A stretch of DNA of 64,000 bases from an uncultured delta proteobacterium (GCA_963839305.1 CAWIUL010000011.1:2569561-2633560); one strand, 5' to 3'; shown: positions 1-53,905, counted from the stretch's first letter. Program-made: numbers and translations. The notes: generated from the letters alone by a model not told the origin.

Positions 1-430
1 CGACGACGACGGCAACGACGAGGAGCCCCGCTGCAGTCTCCGCGCCTGTAAGCCGTCCGGTGCCGCCGAAGAGCGCTTCCATGAGCTCCTCTCCCGTCGT
101 CATCAAGCTGCCCACGGCGAGCGCGGTGGAGAACACGACGCCGATGACCGTCTCCGTCGCGAGTCGCGTCCTGCGCTCCATTCCCCAAACGAGAAGGGCC
201 CCGAGGACGAGCATCGCGACACCGCCAATCACGGGCTGGATCCGCACGAGAAGCGCGAGGCCGATTCCAGGTAGCGCAACGTGAGAGAGCGCGTCGGCGG
301 CGAGCGTCATCCTGCGCATGACGGCGAAGCAGCCGACGAGACCGGCGGCCACTCCAGTGCCGACCGCGAGGGCCAGCTCGCTAACCTCGTTGGTGATCAT
401 GAACGTGGTATCCGACGGGCGTGCCATAGA
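1..430 (-). CDS. ABC transporter permease, ZnuB-like (metal uptake); 3' end lies beyond window start
   Basis: Reverse translation gives MARPSDTTFMITNEVSELALAVGTGVAAGLVGCFAVMRRMTLAADALSHVALPGIGLALL..., a hydrophobic multi-TM Zn/Mn permease pattern, directly downstream of the ABC ATPase on the same strand. The start may be M at 403 instead of 430. Confidence 0.6.
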
Positions 431-1091
431 GTTGTTCGAGCATCGTTGGAGTGAGGACCGTCTTCGGGGCGCCAAAGCACGCGGCCCCGCGCGCGAGGCA
501 AAGGACGTTCGAGGCGTAGCGGTAGACGACGCTCAAATCGTGCGAGATCAGGACGACCGTCAGGCCCTCGTCACGTCGCAACCTCTCGATCGTCTCGTTC
601 ACCGTCTCCTGCCCCGGCTCGTCCACCCCGGCCGTCGGCTCGTCCAAGAGGAGCACGGTTGGCTCGCCGACGAGCGCCGTGGCCACGAGCAAGCGCTGGA
701 ACTGTCCTCCCGAGAGCGCTCCGATCGGCATGCTGGCGATGTCGTGGCCAAGGCTGACGAGATCGAGCGCCCGTAAGACATCGCCGCTGGTGGTGTGGGT
801 TACCGCCGCTTTGGCGCGCAGGAAGTCGTCGCCCGTCACCGGCAGATCGCGCTCGATGTCGAGCTTCTGCGGCACGTAACCGATCCGTGTTCCCTTCGCC
901 CAGCGGACGGTTCCGTCGTGCGGGATCGCACCGATGAGCGCCTGGAAGAGCACCGTCTTGCCAGCGCCGTTGGGTCCGATGATCGCCAGCGAGCTGCCAC
1001 GCAAGACGTCGAACGACAGAGCGCTGAGGATCTCGGTTCGGCCAAAGCGCACCGAGACGTTCAGGACTTCGAGAGCGTTTGCGTCGCGCAT
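381..1091 (-). CDS. ABC transporter ATP-binding protein, ZnuC/MntB-like
   Basis: Walker A GPNGAGKT, signature LSGGQFQRL and Walker B LLLDEP. Start chosen at MRDANALEVLNVSVRFG (ATG complement 1089-1091); the ORF upstream of that is GC junk. Confidence 0.85.
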   Translation of the reverse strand: MRDANALEVLNVSVRFGRTEILSALSFDVLRGSSLAIIGPNGAGKTVLFQALIGAIPHDGTVRWAKGTRIGYVPQKLDIERDLPVTGDDFLRAKAAVTHTTSGDVLRALDLVSLGHDIASMPIGALSGGQFQRLLVATALVGEPTVLLLDEPTAGVDEPGQETVNETIERLRRDEGLTVVLISHDLSVVYRYASNVLCLARGAACFGAPKTVLTPTMLEQLYGTPVGYHVHDHQRG

Positions 1092-2142
1092 GGTCCTTCG
1101 ATGGCATGCAACGTGCGAACCCGTCGCCGTGCGGTTCTGGCTTCTGCTTTTTTCGCTGACCGCCGGATTGGTCTTCGCCAAACCCGCCGACGCGCAGTGC
1201 ACGTCGAATGCCTCGTCGTGTGTGACATGTCACGAGACGCAGGGCCTGCGACCCGTGCTGCAAAGCAAGCAGGCTTGGCACGTCGATCACGGTTTTGGTG
1301 ATCTCTGCGCGTCTTGCCACGGGGGCGATCCCACGACGCCGACCAAGGCGCAAGCGCACCTCGGTCGACGCGACCCACTGGCCGATCCCGCCACGTCCTG
1401 CGCAGGCTGTCACGCGAGCGATGCAGCTGCGCGTGCGGAGCGGTACCGCGCGGCAGCGAGCCCTGCGATCGCGCCGGTGTCGCCGCCACCCTCGAGCCCT
1501 TCGTCGCCATCGTCATCGACAGGCGCGTCGACGGCCGATCGCGTTCTCGCGATCGTCGCCGCGGTTCTCGCCTTCGCGCTCTACGTCGTCGTGCGCCGCA
1601 AGATCACGGGTTCGCAGCGCACCTTCTTGGCGTGGCTTCGTGAGAAGAGGTGGTCTCCCTACGCCGCCGGTGTGATGCTCGGGCTCGTCATCGCGTTCTC
1701 CGAGGTGATCTGCGCGCGTCCGCTCGGCGCGGCGGGCGCGTTCGACAAGCTCGCGGCCTATCCCGGACGTTGGCTCTTCCCGAAGAGTCAATACTACGGC
1801 CACGTCATGTCGCCCGGGATCACGTGGCAGGTGTGGCTCATCGTCGGCGTGATCGTGGGCTCGTTCGCGTCGAGCAAGCTGTCGGGAGAAGCGCGGCTTC
1901 GTTGGCTTCCCGATACGCAGTGGCGGCCGCGCTTCGGCAACAGCCGCAAGCTGCGGCTCGTCGTCGCGTTCTTCGGCGCCGTTCTCGTCCAGGTCGGCGC
2001 GGGGATCGCGGGCGGCTGCACGAGCGGTCTCGCGATGTCAGGCGGCGCCGCGCTCGCACCGGGGGCGTTTCTCTTCATGGCGGGCATGTTCGCGGGCGGC
2101 ATCCCGACGGCGTGGCTCTTTTACCGCGGGAGGGCAGAGTGA
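1090..2142 (+). CDS. Triheme c-type cytochrome domain (3x CxxCH) fused to YeeE/YedE-family (sulfur-transport, TsuA-like) membrane half
   Basis: Signal peptide MVLRW...LLLFSLTAGLVFAKPADA (alternative GTG start at 1129). Three heme motifs CVTCH, CASCH and CAGCH, then a Pro/Ser linker, a TM helix and the YeeE/YedE hallmark GIAGGCTSGLAMSGG. One continuous frame in the ORF track. Confidence 0.75.
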   Translation: MVLRWHATCEPVAVRFWLLLFSLTAGLVFAKPADAQCTSNASSCVTCHETQGLRPVLQSKQAWHVDHGFGDLCASCHGGDPTTPTKAQAHLGRRDPLADPATSCAGCHASDAAARAERYRAAASPAIAPVSPPPSSPSSPSSSTGASTADRVLAIVAAVLAFALYVVVRRKITGSQRTFLAWLREKRWSPYAAGVMLGLVIAFSEVICARPLGAAGAFDKLAAYPGRWLFPKSQYYGHVMSPGITWQVWLIVGVIVGSFASSKLSGEARLRWLPDTQWRPRFGNSRKLRLVVAFFGAVLVQVGAGIAGGCTSGLAMSGGAALAPGAFLFMAGMFAGGIPTAWLFYRGRAE

Positions 2143-2681
2143 TGTTCGACGTCGTCAAAGCCCTCGTGCTCGGCTTCCTCTTCGGATGGTCACTGCACAA
2201 GGCTGGCCTCACGCACTACGCGCGCATCGTGAACGTCTATCGGCTCCGCGACCTGACCGTGTTGCGCTTCATGCTGACCGCGCTCGTGGTCGGCGCGTTC
2301 GCCAACCAAGCCGGCGTCGCCCTTGGGTTCGCGGCGAGCGTGCCCGTTCCGCCGACGTCGCTGGCCAACGTCATCGGCGGGGTCGTGTTCGGCGTCGGAA
2401 TGGCGACCGCGGGCTACTGCCCGGGCACGGTCGCCGCCCAAGCCGGAGAGGGACACCTCGACGCTTGGGTGGCTGGGCTCTCGGGTCTGCTCGTCGGCGC
2501 CATCGTCTTCGGGCTACTCCAACCGAACATCATGCCGAAGCTCGCGCCGCTCGGCGCGCTTGGGCGCGTCACCGTCGCAGGGCTCACGGGCGCGAGCCCC
2601 TGGTTGGTGCTGCTCGTCTTCGCTCAGCTCGTCGTGCTCACGCTCACGCTCACCGCTCGCGTGGGACGGAGCGCGGCGTGA
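2142..2681 (+). CDS. YeeE/YedE-family membrane protein (second half of split thiosulfate/sulfur transporter)
   Basis: MFDVVKALVLGFLFGWSLHKAGLTHYARIV... with the conserved GYCPGT motif. The ATG overlaps the upstream stop (TGATG), indicating translational coupling. Confidence 0.75.
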   Translation: MFDVVKALVLGFLFGWSLHKAGLTHYARIVNVYRLRDLTVLRFMLTALVVGAFANQAGVALGFAASVPVPPTSLANVIGGVVFGVGMATAGYCPGTVAAQAGEGHLDAWVAGLSGLLVGAIVFGLLQPNIMPKLAPLGALGRVTVAGLTGASPWLVLLVFAQLVVLTLTLTARVGRSAA

Positions 2682-4010
2682 TCACTGGCACTGCGTCGAG
2701 CACTGGCTCGAGCACGCGCTCGTGCAGAGGCAGCTGTAGTAGCTGTCGAACGCGCTCGTTTGGCCGCTCGAGTACGTGCTGTAGCAAGTGCTCGAGCACG
2801 ACGTGTTGCCGTTGCACGCCATGATGCACGACACGAGCGACTTGCACGTCCCGGTGCACGCGGCGTATTCGGACCCGCACATGCCCGTGCTCGAGTCGGC
2901 GCTCGCCTGGCACGAGCTGCACGTGCCGCCCGAAGCCTGGCACTGGCCGTTGTAGCAAGAGCCGCCGCCGCACGAGTTGCCGCACGCGCCGCAGTTGCTC
3001 GGATCCGAATTCGTGTCGACGCACTTCGTTCCGCAAGAGGTCTGCGAGGACTTGCACGCTTGGAGCGCGATCGACTCGGTCGACGTGGTCATGAGATCGA
3101 GCCACGCCTTGGGCTGCACGGTCGCGGCGTCGAGCGTGCCGACGGTCTTCGCGTCTTGGTGGCGCTCGAGGCGAACGCGTTCGATCGAGAGATCGAGCGC
3201 TTGGACGTTGCTCGTGCCGAGCACCTGCGTGATGACGTCGCGTGGGAGCGAGAACGCGCCGCTCGAGTCTTGCGCGAGGCAGCGCGCGGAGCCGCCGGCG
3301 CCGGTGAGGCTCACGTAGACGCGATCGTTTCCGGGCAGCCACCCGAGCATGACGTCCGACGAGCCGAACACTTCGTCGAGGCTCAGTTGATCGAGCGGAG
3401 GGTTCGCTTCGAGGAGCGTCGTCGCCTTGAAGGACACGTCGAACGCGGTGAAGCCCGCGCCCGTGGGACCTGCCGATTGAACGCGCAGATCGACGCCCGG
3501 CGCGAACGGCGAGCCCTCGTCGGAGGTCTTCCAGCCGTACGGCGGATAGACGGCGATCGGCATGTTCGTGCCGGAGATCGCGATAGGCCCCGAGTCGAAG
3601 GTTTGGATCGCCTTGCAGCTCTGTGAGCCGTCGCCGGCGCGGACGCATTGCTGTCCGTCGCCGCACGAGAGCGTGCACGCGGGAATGCACGCGGCGTTGC
3701 AGCCGTCGTCGAACCCGCAGGTCTCGCCGGTCTTGCAGCCGAGGCTCGAGCAGTCGGGAGCTTGCGTGATCGTGCACGTCGCGAGCTGCGACTGCCCGCA
3801 CGACGTGAGCACGCTGGACGTGTCGGGGACGAACGAGACCGACACGCTCGGCGTCACGACGCTCGAATTCGGCGCGTGCGAGGCCGAGAGCACGATGGTG
3901 CCCTGCGCGCGCACCGTCTGATCCGCGAGCGGATCGGTGAAGCTGACGTTCGTCGCACACGCGAAAGCGAAGGCGAGCAGACCGCTCGCGAGCAAGTGGG
4001 ATTGGCGCAT
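2682..4010 (-). CDS. Secreted cysteine-rich protein with myxobacterial-type Cys-rich repeats
   Basis: Signal peptide MRQSHLLASGLLAFAFACA, then 442 aa with about 45 Cys in CxxC/CGxC clusters (CGACGNSCGGGSCYNGQC) and Ser/Thr richness. Codon usage is consistent with the rest of the window. Confidence 0.6.
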   Translation of the reverse strand: MRQSHLLASGLLAFAFACATNVSFTDPLADQTVRAQGTIVLSASHAPNSSVVTPSVSVSFVPDTSSVLTSCGQSQLATCTITQAPDCSSLGCKTGETCGFDDGCNAACIPACTLSCGDGQQCVRAGDGSQSCKAIQTFDSGPIAISGTNMPIAVYPPYGWKTSDEGSPFAPGVDLRVQSAGPTGAGFTAFDVSFKATTLLEANPPLDQLSLDEVFGSSDVMLGWLPGNDRVYVSLTGAGGSARCLAQDSSGAFSLPRDVITQVLGTSNVQALDLSIERVRLERHQDAKTVGTLDAATVQPKAWLDLMTTSTESIALQACKSSQTSCGTKCVDTNSDPSNCGACGNSCGGGSCYNGQCQASGGTCSSCQASADSSTGMCGSEYAACTGTCKSLVSCIMACNGNTSCSSTCYSTYSSGQTSAFDSYYSCLCTSACSSQCSTQCQ

Positions 4011-41255: not shown

Positions 41256-41624
41256 ATGCAGGTTGCACGCATTTCACCGCAGGAAGCCGCCGCGAAGCTC
41301 GCCGAGGGTTGGGTCTACGTCGACGTGCGCGAGGAGATCGATTTCGAGGCAGGCCGCCCGCGCGGCGCGGTGAACGTGCCGTACTCGCGCAACGAGGAGC
41401 GCTTCGTCGCTGCGGTTCGCGCCGCGACCGACGCGCGCCGCGTGGTGCTCGGGTGCAAGTCGGGCATCGTCTCCGTGCACGCGGCCGAGATGCTCGCGCG
41501 CGCGGGGTTCGAGGTGCTCGAGCAGCGCGCGGGCTTCGACGGCGCGCGCGGCACGTTCGGCCAGCTCGAGGAGCCGGGGTGGGAGCGCCTGGGCCTTCCG
41601 ACGGACCGCGACCCGGACGATTGA
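41256..41624 (+). CDS. Rhodanese-domain sulfurtransferase (single domain)
   Basis: 122 aa with active-site loop CKSGIVS. Starts 4 nt after the upstream stop. Confidence 0.75.
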   Translation: MQVARISPQEAAAKLAEGWVYVDVREEIDFEAGRPRGAVNVPYSRNEERFVAAVRAATDARRVVLGCKSGIVSVHAAEMLARAGFEVLEQRAGFDGARGTFGQLEEPGWERLGLPTDRDPDD

Positions 41625-53368: not shown

Positions 53369-53905
53369 TCAATTCGGGGTCACGGCGTCGTGCGGCATCT
53401 TCTCGCCGCTGGCCTGCCGGTTCTTCATCTCGTACTTGCTCGGGCACTTCGCGAGCACGCTCGTCGCCTCGAAGCTGTTGTCGGCGTGGAGCTCGCCCTC
53501 GACCGTCACGCCGACGTCCATCCCGGGGACGTCACGGAACGTGTCGGGGACGACGCATTGCGCGTACTTCACCGGGAGCGCGGTGCCGTTCTTCTCGATC
53601 GTGAAGTCGTACTCGCACGGCTTGTCGTGGTGGACGAGCGACCCGTGAACGAGGTTTCCCTCGACGCGAACGGGCCTTCCGACGAATTTGCCCTTTTCTT
53701 GGATGAGCGCGTCGACCGGCTTCGAGTAAATCGCCTTGTCCTTCATCGTGAAGAGGACGATCGACACGATGGCCACCGCGGCCATGACCAGCCCAACGGC
53801 GAGGAGGACGCCGCTTCCTGCGGCGATTGCCTGCGAGTCGTCGCGGTTTCTGCGGCGACGGGGGATCGCTACACCTGAGTCTTCCGGCGGTTGCTCCTCG
53901 GCCAT
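53369..53905 (-). CDS. ccmE: Cytochrome c maturation heme chaperone CcmE, CxxxY variant
   Basis: TM anchor plus OB-fold: VRVEGNLVHGSLV, YDFTIEKNGTALPVKY, DVPGMDVGVTVEGEL. Heme-binding motif LAKCPSKYE, where Cys replaces the usual His of HxxxY. Confidence 0.75.
   Translation of the reverse strand: MAEEQPPEDSGVAIPRRRRNRDDSQAIAAGSGVLLAVGLVMAAVAIVSIVLFTMKDKAIYSKPVDALIQEKGKFVGRPVRVEGNLVHGSLVHHDKPCEYDFTIEKNGTALPVKYAQCVVPDTFRDVPGMDVGVTVEGELHADNSFEATSVLAKCPSKYEMKNRQASGEKMPHDAVTPN

Follow-up and report, generated by a model that had tools for sequence, protein, structure and literature searches.

A periplasmic triheme cytochrome c joined to one half of a split YeeE/YedE channel: a candidate redox-coupled sulfur translocase in Myxococcota and Chloroflexota

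How sulfur at the sulfane and thiosulfate level crosses the cytoplasmic membrane, and whether proteins of the YeeE family act as passive channels or through cysteine chemistry, are open questions in sulfur metabolism. Here, we describe a gene pair that bears on both, found in a 64,000-nucleotide stretch of DNA from an uncultured delta proteobacterium (GCA_963839305.1 CAWIUL010000011.1:2569561-2633560; this whole stretch is called the window below). Its first gene (gene 1) encodes a periplasmic triheme cytochrome c joined to one half of a YeeE/YedE-type channel, and an overlapping gene (gene 2) encodes the other half. Among the closest described systems is YeeE/TsuA, represented by S. thermophila YeeE (StYeeE; PDB 6LEO) and E. 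coli YeeE. StYeeE has its N-terminus outside and its C-terminus inside, and its helices H1–H6 and H8–H13 form related repeats whose topology is reversed by H7 (PMC7449682). Cys293 is located at the periplasmic thiosulfate site, with Cys91 and Cys22 deeper in the pore; the C91A and C293A variants are inactive, whereas C22A is tolerated and still complements (PMC7449682). Split relatives also exist. PmpA/PmpB of Serratia and YedE1/YedE2 of Cupriavidus pinatubonensis consist of halves of about 130–140 aa with four helices and no extra domain. PmpB was proposed to resemble the N-terminal and PmpA the C-terminal half of YeeE (PMC11582611), and YedE1E2, the closest characterised relative of the pair described here, is an importer of zero-valent sulfur that depends on one cysteine from either half (PMC10812762).

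The window pair combines features of both systems. It shares with YeeE/TsuA the Sulf_transp family (PF04143), equivalents of Cys91 and Cys293, the loop C arginine and the inferred topology, and its gene 2 extends through an H7-like helix. It differs in being split into two polypeptides, in having Thr at the Cys22 position, in lacking a YeeD/TsuB gene and in scoring far under the TsuA cut-offs; moreover, its triheme cytochrome and additional membrane helix are present in no characterised YeeE. Its likeness to PmpA/PmpB and YedE1/YedE2 lies in the adjacent genes in A-then-B order, the correspondence of the two products to the C- and N-terminal halves (PMC11582611), the single conserved cysteine per half and the ArsR/SmtB-family regulator that often adjoins the pair in relatives. 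Unlike these compact halves, however, gene 1 carries a 180-aa N-terminal extension (cytochrome, linker and the extra helix, TM0) and gene 2 a fifth helix. The two genes and their junction are as follows.

1090..2142, plus strand: gene 1, triheme cytochrome c joined to a PmpA-like (C-terminal-type) YeeE/YedE half, 350 aa if started at ATG 1090
2140..2144, plus strand: TGATG, where the gene 1 stop and the gene 2 start overlap by 1 nt, the A of TGA being the A of ATG
2142..2681, plus strand: gene 2, 179 aa, PmpB-like (N-terminal-type) half with a fifth, H7-like C-terminal helix

Gene 1 is a single unbroken open reading frame (ORF) up to the TGA at 2140–2142. Its product contains, in this order, a signal peptide, Cys37, CVTCH, His64-x-x-His67, CASCH, His90, CAGCH, a Pro/Ser-rich linker, a hydrophobic helix, an RRK...REKR stretch and the Sulf_transp domain. 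A search of 5.8 billion clustered proteins with gene 1 returned 306 hits, and the best 120 of these 306 were examined; they cover 84–100% of the protein at 55–77% identity. The closest matches come from metagenome-assembled genomes (MAGs) of Polyangia-type Myxococcota (Labilithrix, Sandaracinaceae, Polyangiaceae, Kofleriaceae). In their source annotation, these proteins are named only “YeeE/YedE family protein” or “hypothetical”, and the cytochrome domain is not mentioned. Residue conservation was counted in an alignment of 121 homologues, in which 13 sequences with only two heme motifs are N-terminally truncated. Together, these data confirm a genuine, conserved fusion of a cytochrome to a YeeE half. 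The alternative, a frameshift or an assembly artefact by which two separate genes had been joined, is refuted by the continuous ORF in the window and by the recurrence of this architecture, which is shared by over 120 independent protein clusters and by 23 loci from many assemblies. One related locus from a long-read assembly (L018; loci are designated by L numbers) does contain a frameshift between the cytochrome and transporter parts.

These results bear out the domain reading of the original prediction, which had been made from the window sequence alone and comprised a signal peptide, three hemes, a linker, a GGCTSG half and a GYCPGT half; the ORF, the Pfam matches and the alignment all agree with it. 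Both genes match Sulf_transp above threshold, three CxxCH motifs (CVTCH, CASCH and CAGCH) are present and conserved in homologues, no frameshift separates the cytochrome from the membrane part, and the 23 fused loci include Myxococcota as well as two Chloroflexia MAGs. Some details had to be adjusted. The predicted coupling of the genes through TGATG holds as an overlap of stop and start, but gene 2 begins at 2142 rather than 2143 and the overlap is 1 nt. The two YeeE/YedE halves are likewise present, with their order now set right: gene 1 provides the C-terminal-type and gene 2 the N-terminal-type half. The counterparts of genes 1 and 2 are adjacent or overlapping in related loci too.

The membrane parts of both proteins could be mapped onto the solved YeeE structures, which defined the following features.

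1459..1530, plus strand: Pro/Ser-rich linker SPAIAPVSPPPSSPSSPSSSTGAS, which tethers the cytochrome domain to the membrane part
1531..1608, plus strand: extra helix TM0, placed out-to-in, followed by RRK...REKR on the cytoplasmic side; the helix spans aa 148–173 in the AlphaFold model
1627..2139, plus strand: PmpA-like half, equivalent of S. thermophila YeeE H8–H13
2017..2019, plus strand: Cys310 codon in GGCTSG, equivalent to StYeeE Cys293, aligned to AGGCNIG of 8K1R/6LEO
2418..2420, plus strand: Cys93 codon TGC in GYCPGT, equivalent to StYeeE Cys91 in mid-pore, aligned to 6LEO

Against the Pfam Sulf_transp profile (cut-off 27), gene 1 scored 78.7 bits over aa 124–338 (profile positions 109–309) and gene 2 59.1 bits (profile positions 10–151); gene 2 additionally scored 28.4 bits against DUF6691. 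Using phmmer, the membrane part of gene 1 was aligned with residues 228–331 of 6LEO/8K1R, and gene 2 with residues 5–178 of 6LEO, which correspond to H1–H7 (E = 6.8e-9). The assignment of genes 2 and 1 thus matches the one proposed for PmpB and PmpA. The PmpA-like half of gene 1 is 43% identical to a stand-alone Chloroflexota PmpA-like gene, and stand-alone Chloroflexota PmpA begins at the same conserved sequence, (F/W)(L/R)(R/K)E(K/E)WSPY. Both cysteines that are essential in StYeeE have counterparts, Cys91 in Cys93 of gene 2 and Cys293 in Cys310 of gene 1. Cys310 is kept in 121/121 homologues and Arg210, the loop C arginine, in 115/121. The loop A position of StYeeE Cys22 is Thr in gene 2 (alignment to 6LEO); since StYeeE C22A still complements, an equivalent of this cysteine is not essential. 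The linker varies in length and sequence among homologues and has no secondary structure in the AlphaFold model. Because c-type hemes are attached in the periplasm, TM0 must run out-to-in, in line with the positive-inside rule. From this orientation, we infer that the N-terminus of the PmpA-like half is placed in the cytoplasm, as H7 does for H8–H13.

The exported part of gene 1 contains the following features.

1129..1194, plus strand: predicted Sec signal peptide MRFWLLLFSLTAGLVFAKPADA, read from the sequence; the mature protein after it would begin Gln36-Cys37
1198..1200, plus strand: Cys37 codon, a cysteine outside the heme motifs, six residues ahead of heme motif 1 (C-x6-CxxCH)
1219..1233, plus strand: heme motif 1, CVTCH (Cys44–His48), kept in every homologue reaching that position
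1279..1290, plus strand: His64-x-x-His67, candidate distal heme ligands; His64 in 120/121 and His67 in 121/121 homologues
1306..1320, plus strand: heme motif 2, CASCH (Cys73–His77), 121/121 homologues
1357..1359, plus strand: His90, candidate third distal heme ligand, 121/121 homologues
1399..1413, plus strand: heme motif 3, CAGCH (Cys104–His108), 121/121 homologues

The three CxxCH motifs, the histidines His64, His67 and His90 and the signal peptide are those of a multiheme c-type cytochrome in an exported domain. The homologue consensus at the end of the signal peptide is A-x-P-A-x-A-Q-C, with Gln36 in 107/107 sequences and Cys37 in all 108 homologues that extend that far; cleavage is accordingly predicted after AxA (MRFWLLLFSLTAGLVFAKPADA|QC). 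Residues 33–42 have a pLDDT below 50 in the AlphaFold model, and the arm that carries Cys37 is probably flexible. Gene 1 reached 20.0 bits against Cytochrome_C7 (PF14522), below the gathering score of 24.8, which a relative, P0193, exceeds with 25.9 bits. Profile searches of the PDB found no close solved cytochrome, only matches of the heme-packing motifs to NrfA and NrfB (E ~1e-3), the best of them to the heme-packing region of NrfA (E = 4e-4). From its sequence, we classify the triheme domain as a divergent subfamily of the multiheme c-type (c7/c3-like) cytochromes.

When 1.84 billion representatives were searched with the 90-residue domain, 285 proteins were identified (E <= 1e-3), nearly all of which share the pattern C-x6-CxxCH ... 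HxxH ... CxxCH ... H ... CxxCH. Among 133 representatives of this wider family, HxxH is present in all and the cysteine equivalent to Cys37 in 121. Four domain arrangements of the module were observed: one membrane anchor as the only addition; an anchor followed by a tail of about 100–150 aa without a Pfam match; fusion to a YeeE half; and fusion to a TmcC/HmcE-type membrane cytochrome b (P0193 and P0244). Next to the TmcC fusions, which are encoded at two loci (L085:4306-8331 and L086:51-3468), are genes for an HdrD-like CCG-domain protein, for a GcvH-like protein and for a lipoate ligase. By analogy, the TmcC-fused locus appears to be a DsrMKJ-like unit for transmembrane redox of the thiol/disulfide type, possibly linked to lipoate-based sulfur chemistry. 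L085 additionally encodes E2 and E3 dehydrogenase components.

The distribution of the system was analyzed in a scan of GTDB with one genome per species, which identified a relative in 185 species; 80 loci were fetched. In total, 84 loci (83 related loci and the window) were scored for the fusion. The cytochrome and the PmpA-like half are fused in 23 of the 84; the other 61, of which a few are truncated or frameshifted, have no heme motifs in frame with PmpA. Most of the 61 non-fused loci contain a separate cytochrome gene directly upstream. Myxococcota usually have the fused form, and Chloroflexota, mostly Anaerolineae, encode the three parts in consecutive genes: a cytochrome of 276–339 aa with its own anchor and a cytoplasmic tail, then the PmpA-like and the PmpB-like half. 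Fused forms are also found in the two Chloroflexia MAGs (L022 and L026), and split forms in some Polyangia (L028, L029, L034 and L056). Fused and split arrangements thus occur in both phyla, which is a classic signature of proteins working together. In about 20 Chloroflexota loci and in L003, the gene immediately upstream of the cytochrome encodes an ArsR/SmtB-family protein, a kind of neighbor that is also present at the characterised PmpAB/YedE1E2 loci (PMC10812762).

The split loci have a characteristic downstream gene. A gene for a PsrA/PhsA-type molybdoenzyme comes straight after PmpB in 43 of the 52 non-fused loci that have sufficient flanking DNA. This enzyme matches T. thermophilus PsrA over its full length with E = 5e-131, compared with 3e-45 for ArrA, and scores 573 bits against the NCBIfam PhsA model. 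Behind it are genes for HmcB/HybA-like iron–sulfur (FeS), NrfD-type and cytochrome b (ExtP/ExtQ-like) proteins, an ExtM-like multiheme cytochrome and Rieske proteins. This molybdoenzyme cluster (L063:11975-18884, with an equivalent in about 40 Chloroflexota loci) encodes a Tat-exported molybdoenzyme and is preceded by PocR-type and ArsR-type regulators; we found no description of this Chloroflexota respiratory gene set.

A further feature of the Chloroflexota genes was noticed while ORF lengths were being measured: many PmpB ORFs end after about 94 codons at an in-frame TGA, past which conserved protein sequence continues in the same frame (…G(F/Y)*PGTC(A/V)AG(S/G)GEGKLDY…). This TGA occupies the position of the pore cysteine Cys93. 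A codon census over 85 loci found either Cys or TGA at this position in every one (49 TGA, 32 TGC and 4 TGT), with TGC in the window and TGA in most Chloroflexota orthologues.

TGA at the Cys93 position: L022, L026, L030, L032-L039, L041-L043, L045-L062, L064-L078, L080-L084 (for example L041:11644-11646 and L053:11776-11778)

Selenocysteine/cysteine pairs mark catalytic redox residues. Judged by the codons and the conserved flanking sequence, the Cys93 position looks like such a pair, and the TGA-bearing PmpB-like proteins are probably selenoproteins. This call is based on the census; a small, GC-rich, weak hairpin located 15–30 nt after the TGA, with compensatory changes in none of its pairs, speaks neither for nor against a selenocysteine insertion sequence (SECIS). 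In L030, the PmpB-like gene has two in-frame TGA codons, one at the pore cysteine and another at about 650–700 (…LAVI*FML…); the latter might reflect either a sequencing error or recoding at a second site. A selenocysteine-containing YeeE/YedE family with the motif GUxSG is listed in a 2026 review (PMC13188914), and such proteins as such are therefore not new. The Chloroflexota gene 2 orthologues resemble that family in having TGA at the pore cysteine; their motif, however, is G(F/Y)UPGT instead of GUxSG, the window protein has Cys (TGC), and the triheme cytochrome and PsrABC links go unmentioned in the review (PMC13188914). The link of selenocysteine-containing YeeE/YedE proteins to a triheme cytochrome system appears to be new.

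Two further groups of known systems resemble the cytochrome part. Like DsrMKJOP, Tmc and Hmc, the window system combines a membrane module for sulfur/thiol chemistry with a three-heme cytochrome that is periplasmic and has one additional conserved cysteine, and members of its triheme family are joined to TmcC/HmcE-type cytochrome b beside HdrD-like CCG proteins; DsrJ is cited in PMC4423706 as a triheme cytochrome with cysteine coordination. Its membrane partner differs, however, in being a YeeE-fold channel with no known cofactor rather than a heme b protein, and transmembrane electron transfer is not expected. SoxAX and TsdA share with it a c-type cytochrome, a conserved, reactive-looking cysteine near heme and a sulfur context. 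The heme-adjacent cysteine of TsdA forms an S-thiosulfonate intermediate (PMC4423706), and by analogy TsdA and SoxA show how a cysteine beside a heme can carry a thiosulfonate intermediate. In the window protein, by contrast, three conserved histidines could ligate all three hemes. No DsrJ, SoxA or TsdA model was among the Pfam or NCBIfam results for the window genes, and a SoxA PDB chain matched the cytochrome domain with E = 0.07, which is no significant homology.

The co-occurrence of the same three parts in two phyla suggests an undescribed transporter in which a cysteine relay is wired to an electron carrier. Starting from the architecture, topology, conservation, gene linkage across phyla and TGA/Cys alternation described above, we propose a covalent translocator of sulfane sulfur, or thiosulfate, in which the cysteine chemistry of a heterodimeric YeeE-fold channel exchanges electrons with the tethered cytochrome; its chances appear a little short of even. 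Genes 1 and 2 would form the channel in the cytoplasmic membrane, gene 2 providing H1–H7 and the C-terminal part of gene 1 H8–H13. The pore nucleophiles would be Cys310 (gene 1) at the periplasmic mouth and, in mid-pore, Cys93 (gene 2), a putative selenocysteine in Chloroflexota. The periplasmic three-heme cytochrome would be tied to this channel via the flexible Pro/Ser linker and the one extra helix, and Cys37, on a flexible arm beside heme 1, may ligate a heme or serve for hand-over. A sulfane- or thiosulfate-level species (polysulfide, persulfide, thiosulfate or oxidised sulfide) could be held as a Cys-S-S adduct at the periplasmic mouth and passed by trans-persulfidation from Cys310 to Cys93 and on to a cytoplasmic thiol acceptor. 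The tethered hemes would take or give two electrons to make or resolve the first adduct and connect to a periplasmic electron-transfer chain. In Chloroflexota, where a PsrABC-type polysulfide/thiosulfate reductase and a Rieske/cytochrome b/multiheme complex are encoded alongside, the module would connect the redox chemistry of sulfur in the periplasm with the passage of sulfur through the membrane. That the pore residues perform redox chemistry is indicated by the fusion to an electron carrier, by the same proteins as neighbors in a second phylum, by the TGA at the pore position and by the reductase-type enzyme nearby; the substrate, the direction of transport and a direct heme–cysteine electron exchange are what we infer beyond this. 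The original prediction had already suggested redox coupling of sulfur transport, which gains comparative support from the linkage of cytochrome, PmpA and PmpB, from the alternation of Cys and TGA and from the PsrA/PhsA neighbors, short of proof.

Several observations weigh against this proposal. The composition of the linker, rich in Pro and Ser, points to loose tethering and not to rigid docking. Cys37 is found throughout the triheme family, including members unlinked to YeeE halves, and the three conserved histidines suffice for three bis-His hemes; Cys37 may thus be a heme ligand or a structural residue rather than a sulfur carrier. A fixed periplasm-facing dithiol of Cys208 and Cys310, a mirror of the Cys22–Cys91 disulfide of YeeE, was considered and rejected as a general feature, since Cys208, the second periplasm-facing cysteine, is present in only 75/121 homologues. 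Fold searches with a model of the half-channel were uninformative. The PsrA/PhsA-type molybdoenzyme adjoins the pair in 0/23 fused loci, and a tblastn search of the window and 87 loci for a TusA/YeeD partner, with E. coli TusA and YeeD as queries, gave one match only, about 10 kb upstream of the L063 pair. Finally, five fused Myxococcota loci have genes for arsenic resistance (ArsR with a CVC motif, ArsD, ArsA, Acr3 and ArsC) no more than 10 kb away, in some cases directly adjacent, in the following stretches.

L002:3514-7769, ars genes
L011:16230-20862, ars genes
L018:11594-12028, ars genes
L019:5522-5914, ars genes
L020:225-3209, ars genes

Such genes are near the fused pair more often than chance suggests, and these loci are perhaps not phylogenetically independent.

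The cytochrome and the channel might merely be encoded together, as a passive PmpAB-like importer or exporter of sulfur and an ordinary electron carrier for a neighboring enzyme (PsrABC or Rieske/cytochrome b), with no flow of electrons between heme and cysteine. The long, flexible linker, the location of the Chloroflexota genes within a large respiratory cluster that needs electron carriers, and the existence of the triheme module alone with just a membrane anchor are all in keeping with this. It would leave unexplained, however, why every heme residue is invariant in the fused Myxococcota loci, none of which (0/23) has Psr or bc-type genes adjoining. Moreover, loose co-expression would not usually produce fused as well as split forms, as found here in each of the two phyla, and the TGA at the pore position points to catalysis within the channel. 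We consider simple co-localisation unlikely, if a serious contender. That the system is a canonical TsuA-type thiosulfate importer for sulfur assimilation, with a decorative or regulatory cytochrome, is improbable. The original prediction had referred to thiosulfate import by YeeE/TsuA, and membership of Sulf_transp and the conservation of both cysteines essential for thiosulfate uptake by YeeE fit such an importer, but they do not establish thiosulfate as the substrate: scores against the TsuA equivalog models are only 28–47 bits, compared with cut-offs of 400–645 (NCBIfam NF041049 / NF052577), the essential partner TsuB/YeeD is not encoded nearby (the single TusA-like match in 87 loci being 10 kb off), Thr replaces Cys22, and invariance of all heme residues is unexpected for a decorative domain.

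The translocated element could also be selenium, tellurium or arsenic, for example in periplasmic selenite reduction combined with import of reduced selenium, or in the handling of arsenite or thioarsenic compounds in metalloid resistance. NCBIfam models of the selenium-type YedE/FdhT score about level with the TsuA models, orthologues have the in-frame TGA of a putative selenocysteine, and the Chloroflexota cluster encodes ExtM/ExtP/ExtQ-like proteins. The ArsD/ArsA/Acr3/ArsC genes near the five Myxococcota loci listed above and the CVC-type ArsR that is transcribed divergently in L002 point in the same direction. On the other hand, the linked molybdoenzyme is far nearer to polysulfide/thiosulfate reductase than to ArrA, as judged by the E-values given above, and the Ext names go back to a Geobacter cluster, the connection of which to selenite is based on the porin ExtI (PMC5877670). 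Near the pair in the window, neither ars nor sel genes were found, most fused loci lack ars genes, and the characterised split relatives move zero-valent sulfur (PMC10812762). A metalloid substrate seems a minor possibility, and the covalent translocator of sulfane or thiosulfate-level sulfur is the reading that we retain.

Clustering of GC3-filtered ORFs, which was noisy, revealed no universal neighbor of the fused Myxococcota loci; the only recurrent genes, each in a subset, are ars, pyruvate:ferredoxin oxidoreductase (PFOR) and ArsR with AHSA1. The PFOR-type gene (about 1050–1200 aa) adjoins the fused pair in about six Myxococcota loci.

L002:9971-13123, pyruvate:ferredoxin oxidoreductase-type gene; also in L005, L009, L011, L014 and L056

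In the window itself, which has a G+C content of 68.5%, the pair is surrounded by the following genes and features.

384-1091, minus strand: divergent ABC-transporter ATPase gene
1129, plus strand: GTG, likelier start of gene 1 (337 aa), based on homologue conservation and the overlap of ATG 1090
2682-4010, minus strand: convergent gene for a 442-aa secreted or lipoprotein-like protein
41256-41624, plus strand: single-domain rhodanese (Pfam), 39 kb from the locus
53372-53905, minus strand: CcmE (Pfam), 51 kb from the locus

Gene 1 had been predicted to start at 1090, and its ORF is indeed continuous from this ATG. However, ATG 1090 and the start codon of the ATPase gene overlap in the palindrome CATG (1089–1092), and similarity to homologues begins only at about residues 12–14 (tblastn), which makes GTG 1129 the likelier start. 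With this start, the gap between the two divergent genes is only 37 bp, and the promoter of each must therefore lie within the other gene. On the other side, the stop codon of the convergent gene begins one base beyond the end of the gene 2 stop codon; its product is very Cys-rich in its C-terminal region (e.g. CGACGNSCGGGSCYNGQCQ) and has no Pfam match. Neither a persulfide dioxygenase nor an ArsR gene adjoins the pair in the window. The rhodanese and CcmE, to which the original prediction had also drawn attention, are real according to Pfam but were dismissed as context because of their distance from the locus. The presence of the CcmE gene in the window means that heme attachment by System I is available; the neighbors of CcmE are not recognisable as ccm genes, one having TPR repeats only and the other no hit.

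In the literature searched, coverage of which was incomplete, we found no description of a cytochrome-linked YeeE/YedE architecture, and there is a realistic chance that the locus represents a new type of redox-coupled sulfur translocase. The stronger claim, that it is the founding member of redox-driven sulfur translocases, in which a Cys/Sec (selenocysteine) relay is charged or discharged by a dedicated periplasmic triheme cytochrome and import or export is coupled to the respiratory chain, is tentative and on balance rather unlikely. The locus amounts to a natural experiment: in one phylum, a channel half is fused to an electron carrier, and in a second, the same proteins are neighbors, together with a TGA codon and a reductase-type enzyme. 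It thereby offers a compact two-gene system for testing redox chemistry at pore residues. About 185 species representatives contain the system, most of them uncultured Polyangia and Anaerolineae; with this spread, it may be relevant to the sulfur cycle of soils, sediments and activated sludge. If the stronger claim is true, these proteins would constitute a class of membrane oxidoreductases with cysteine or selenocysteine as the sole in-membrane cofactor.

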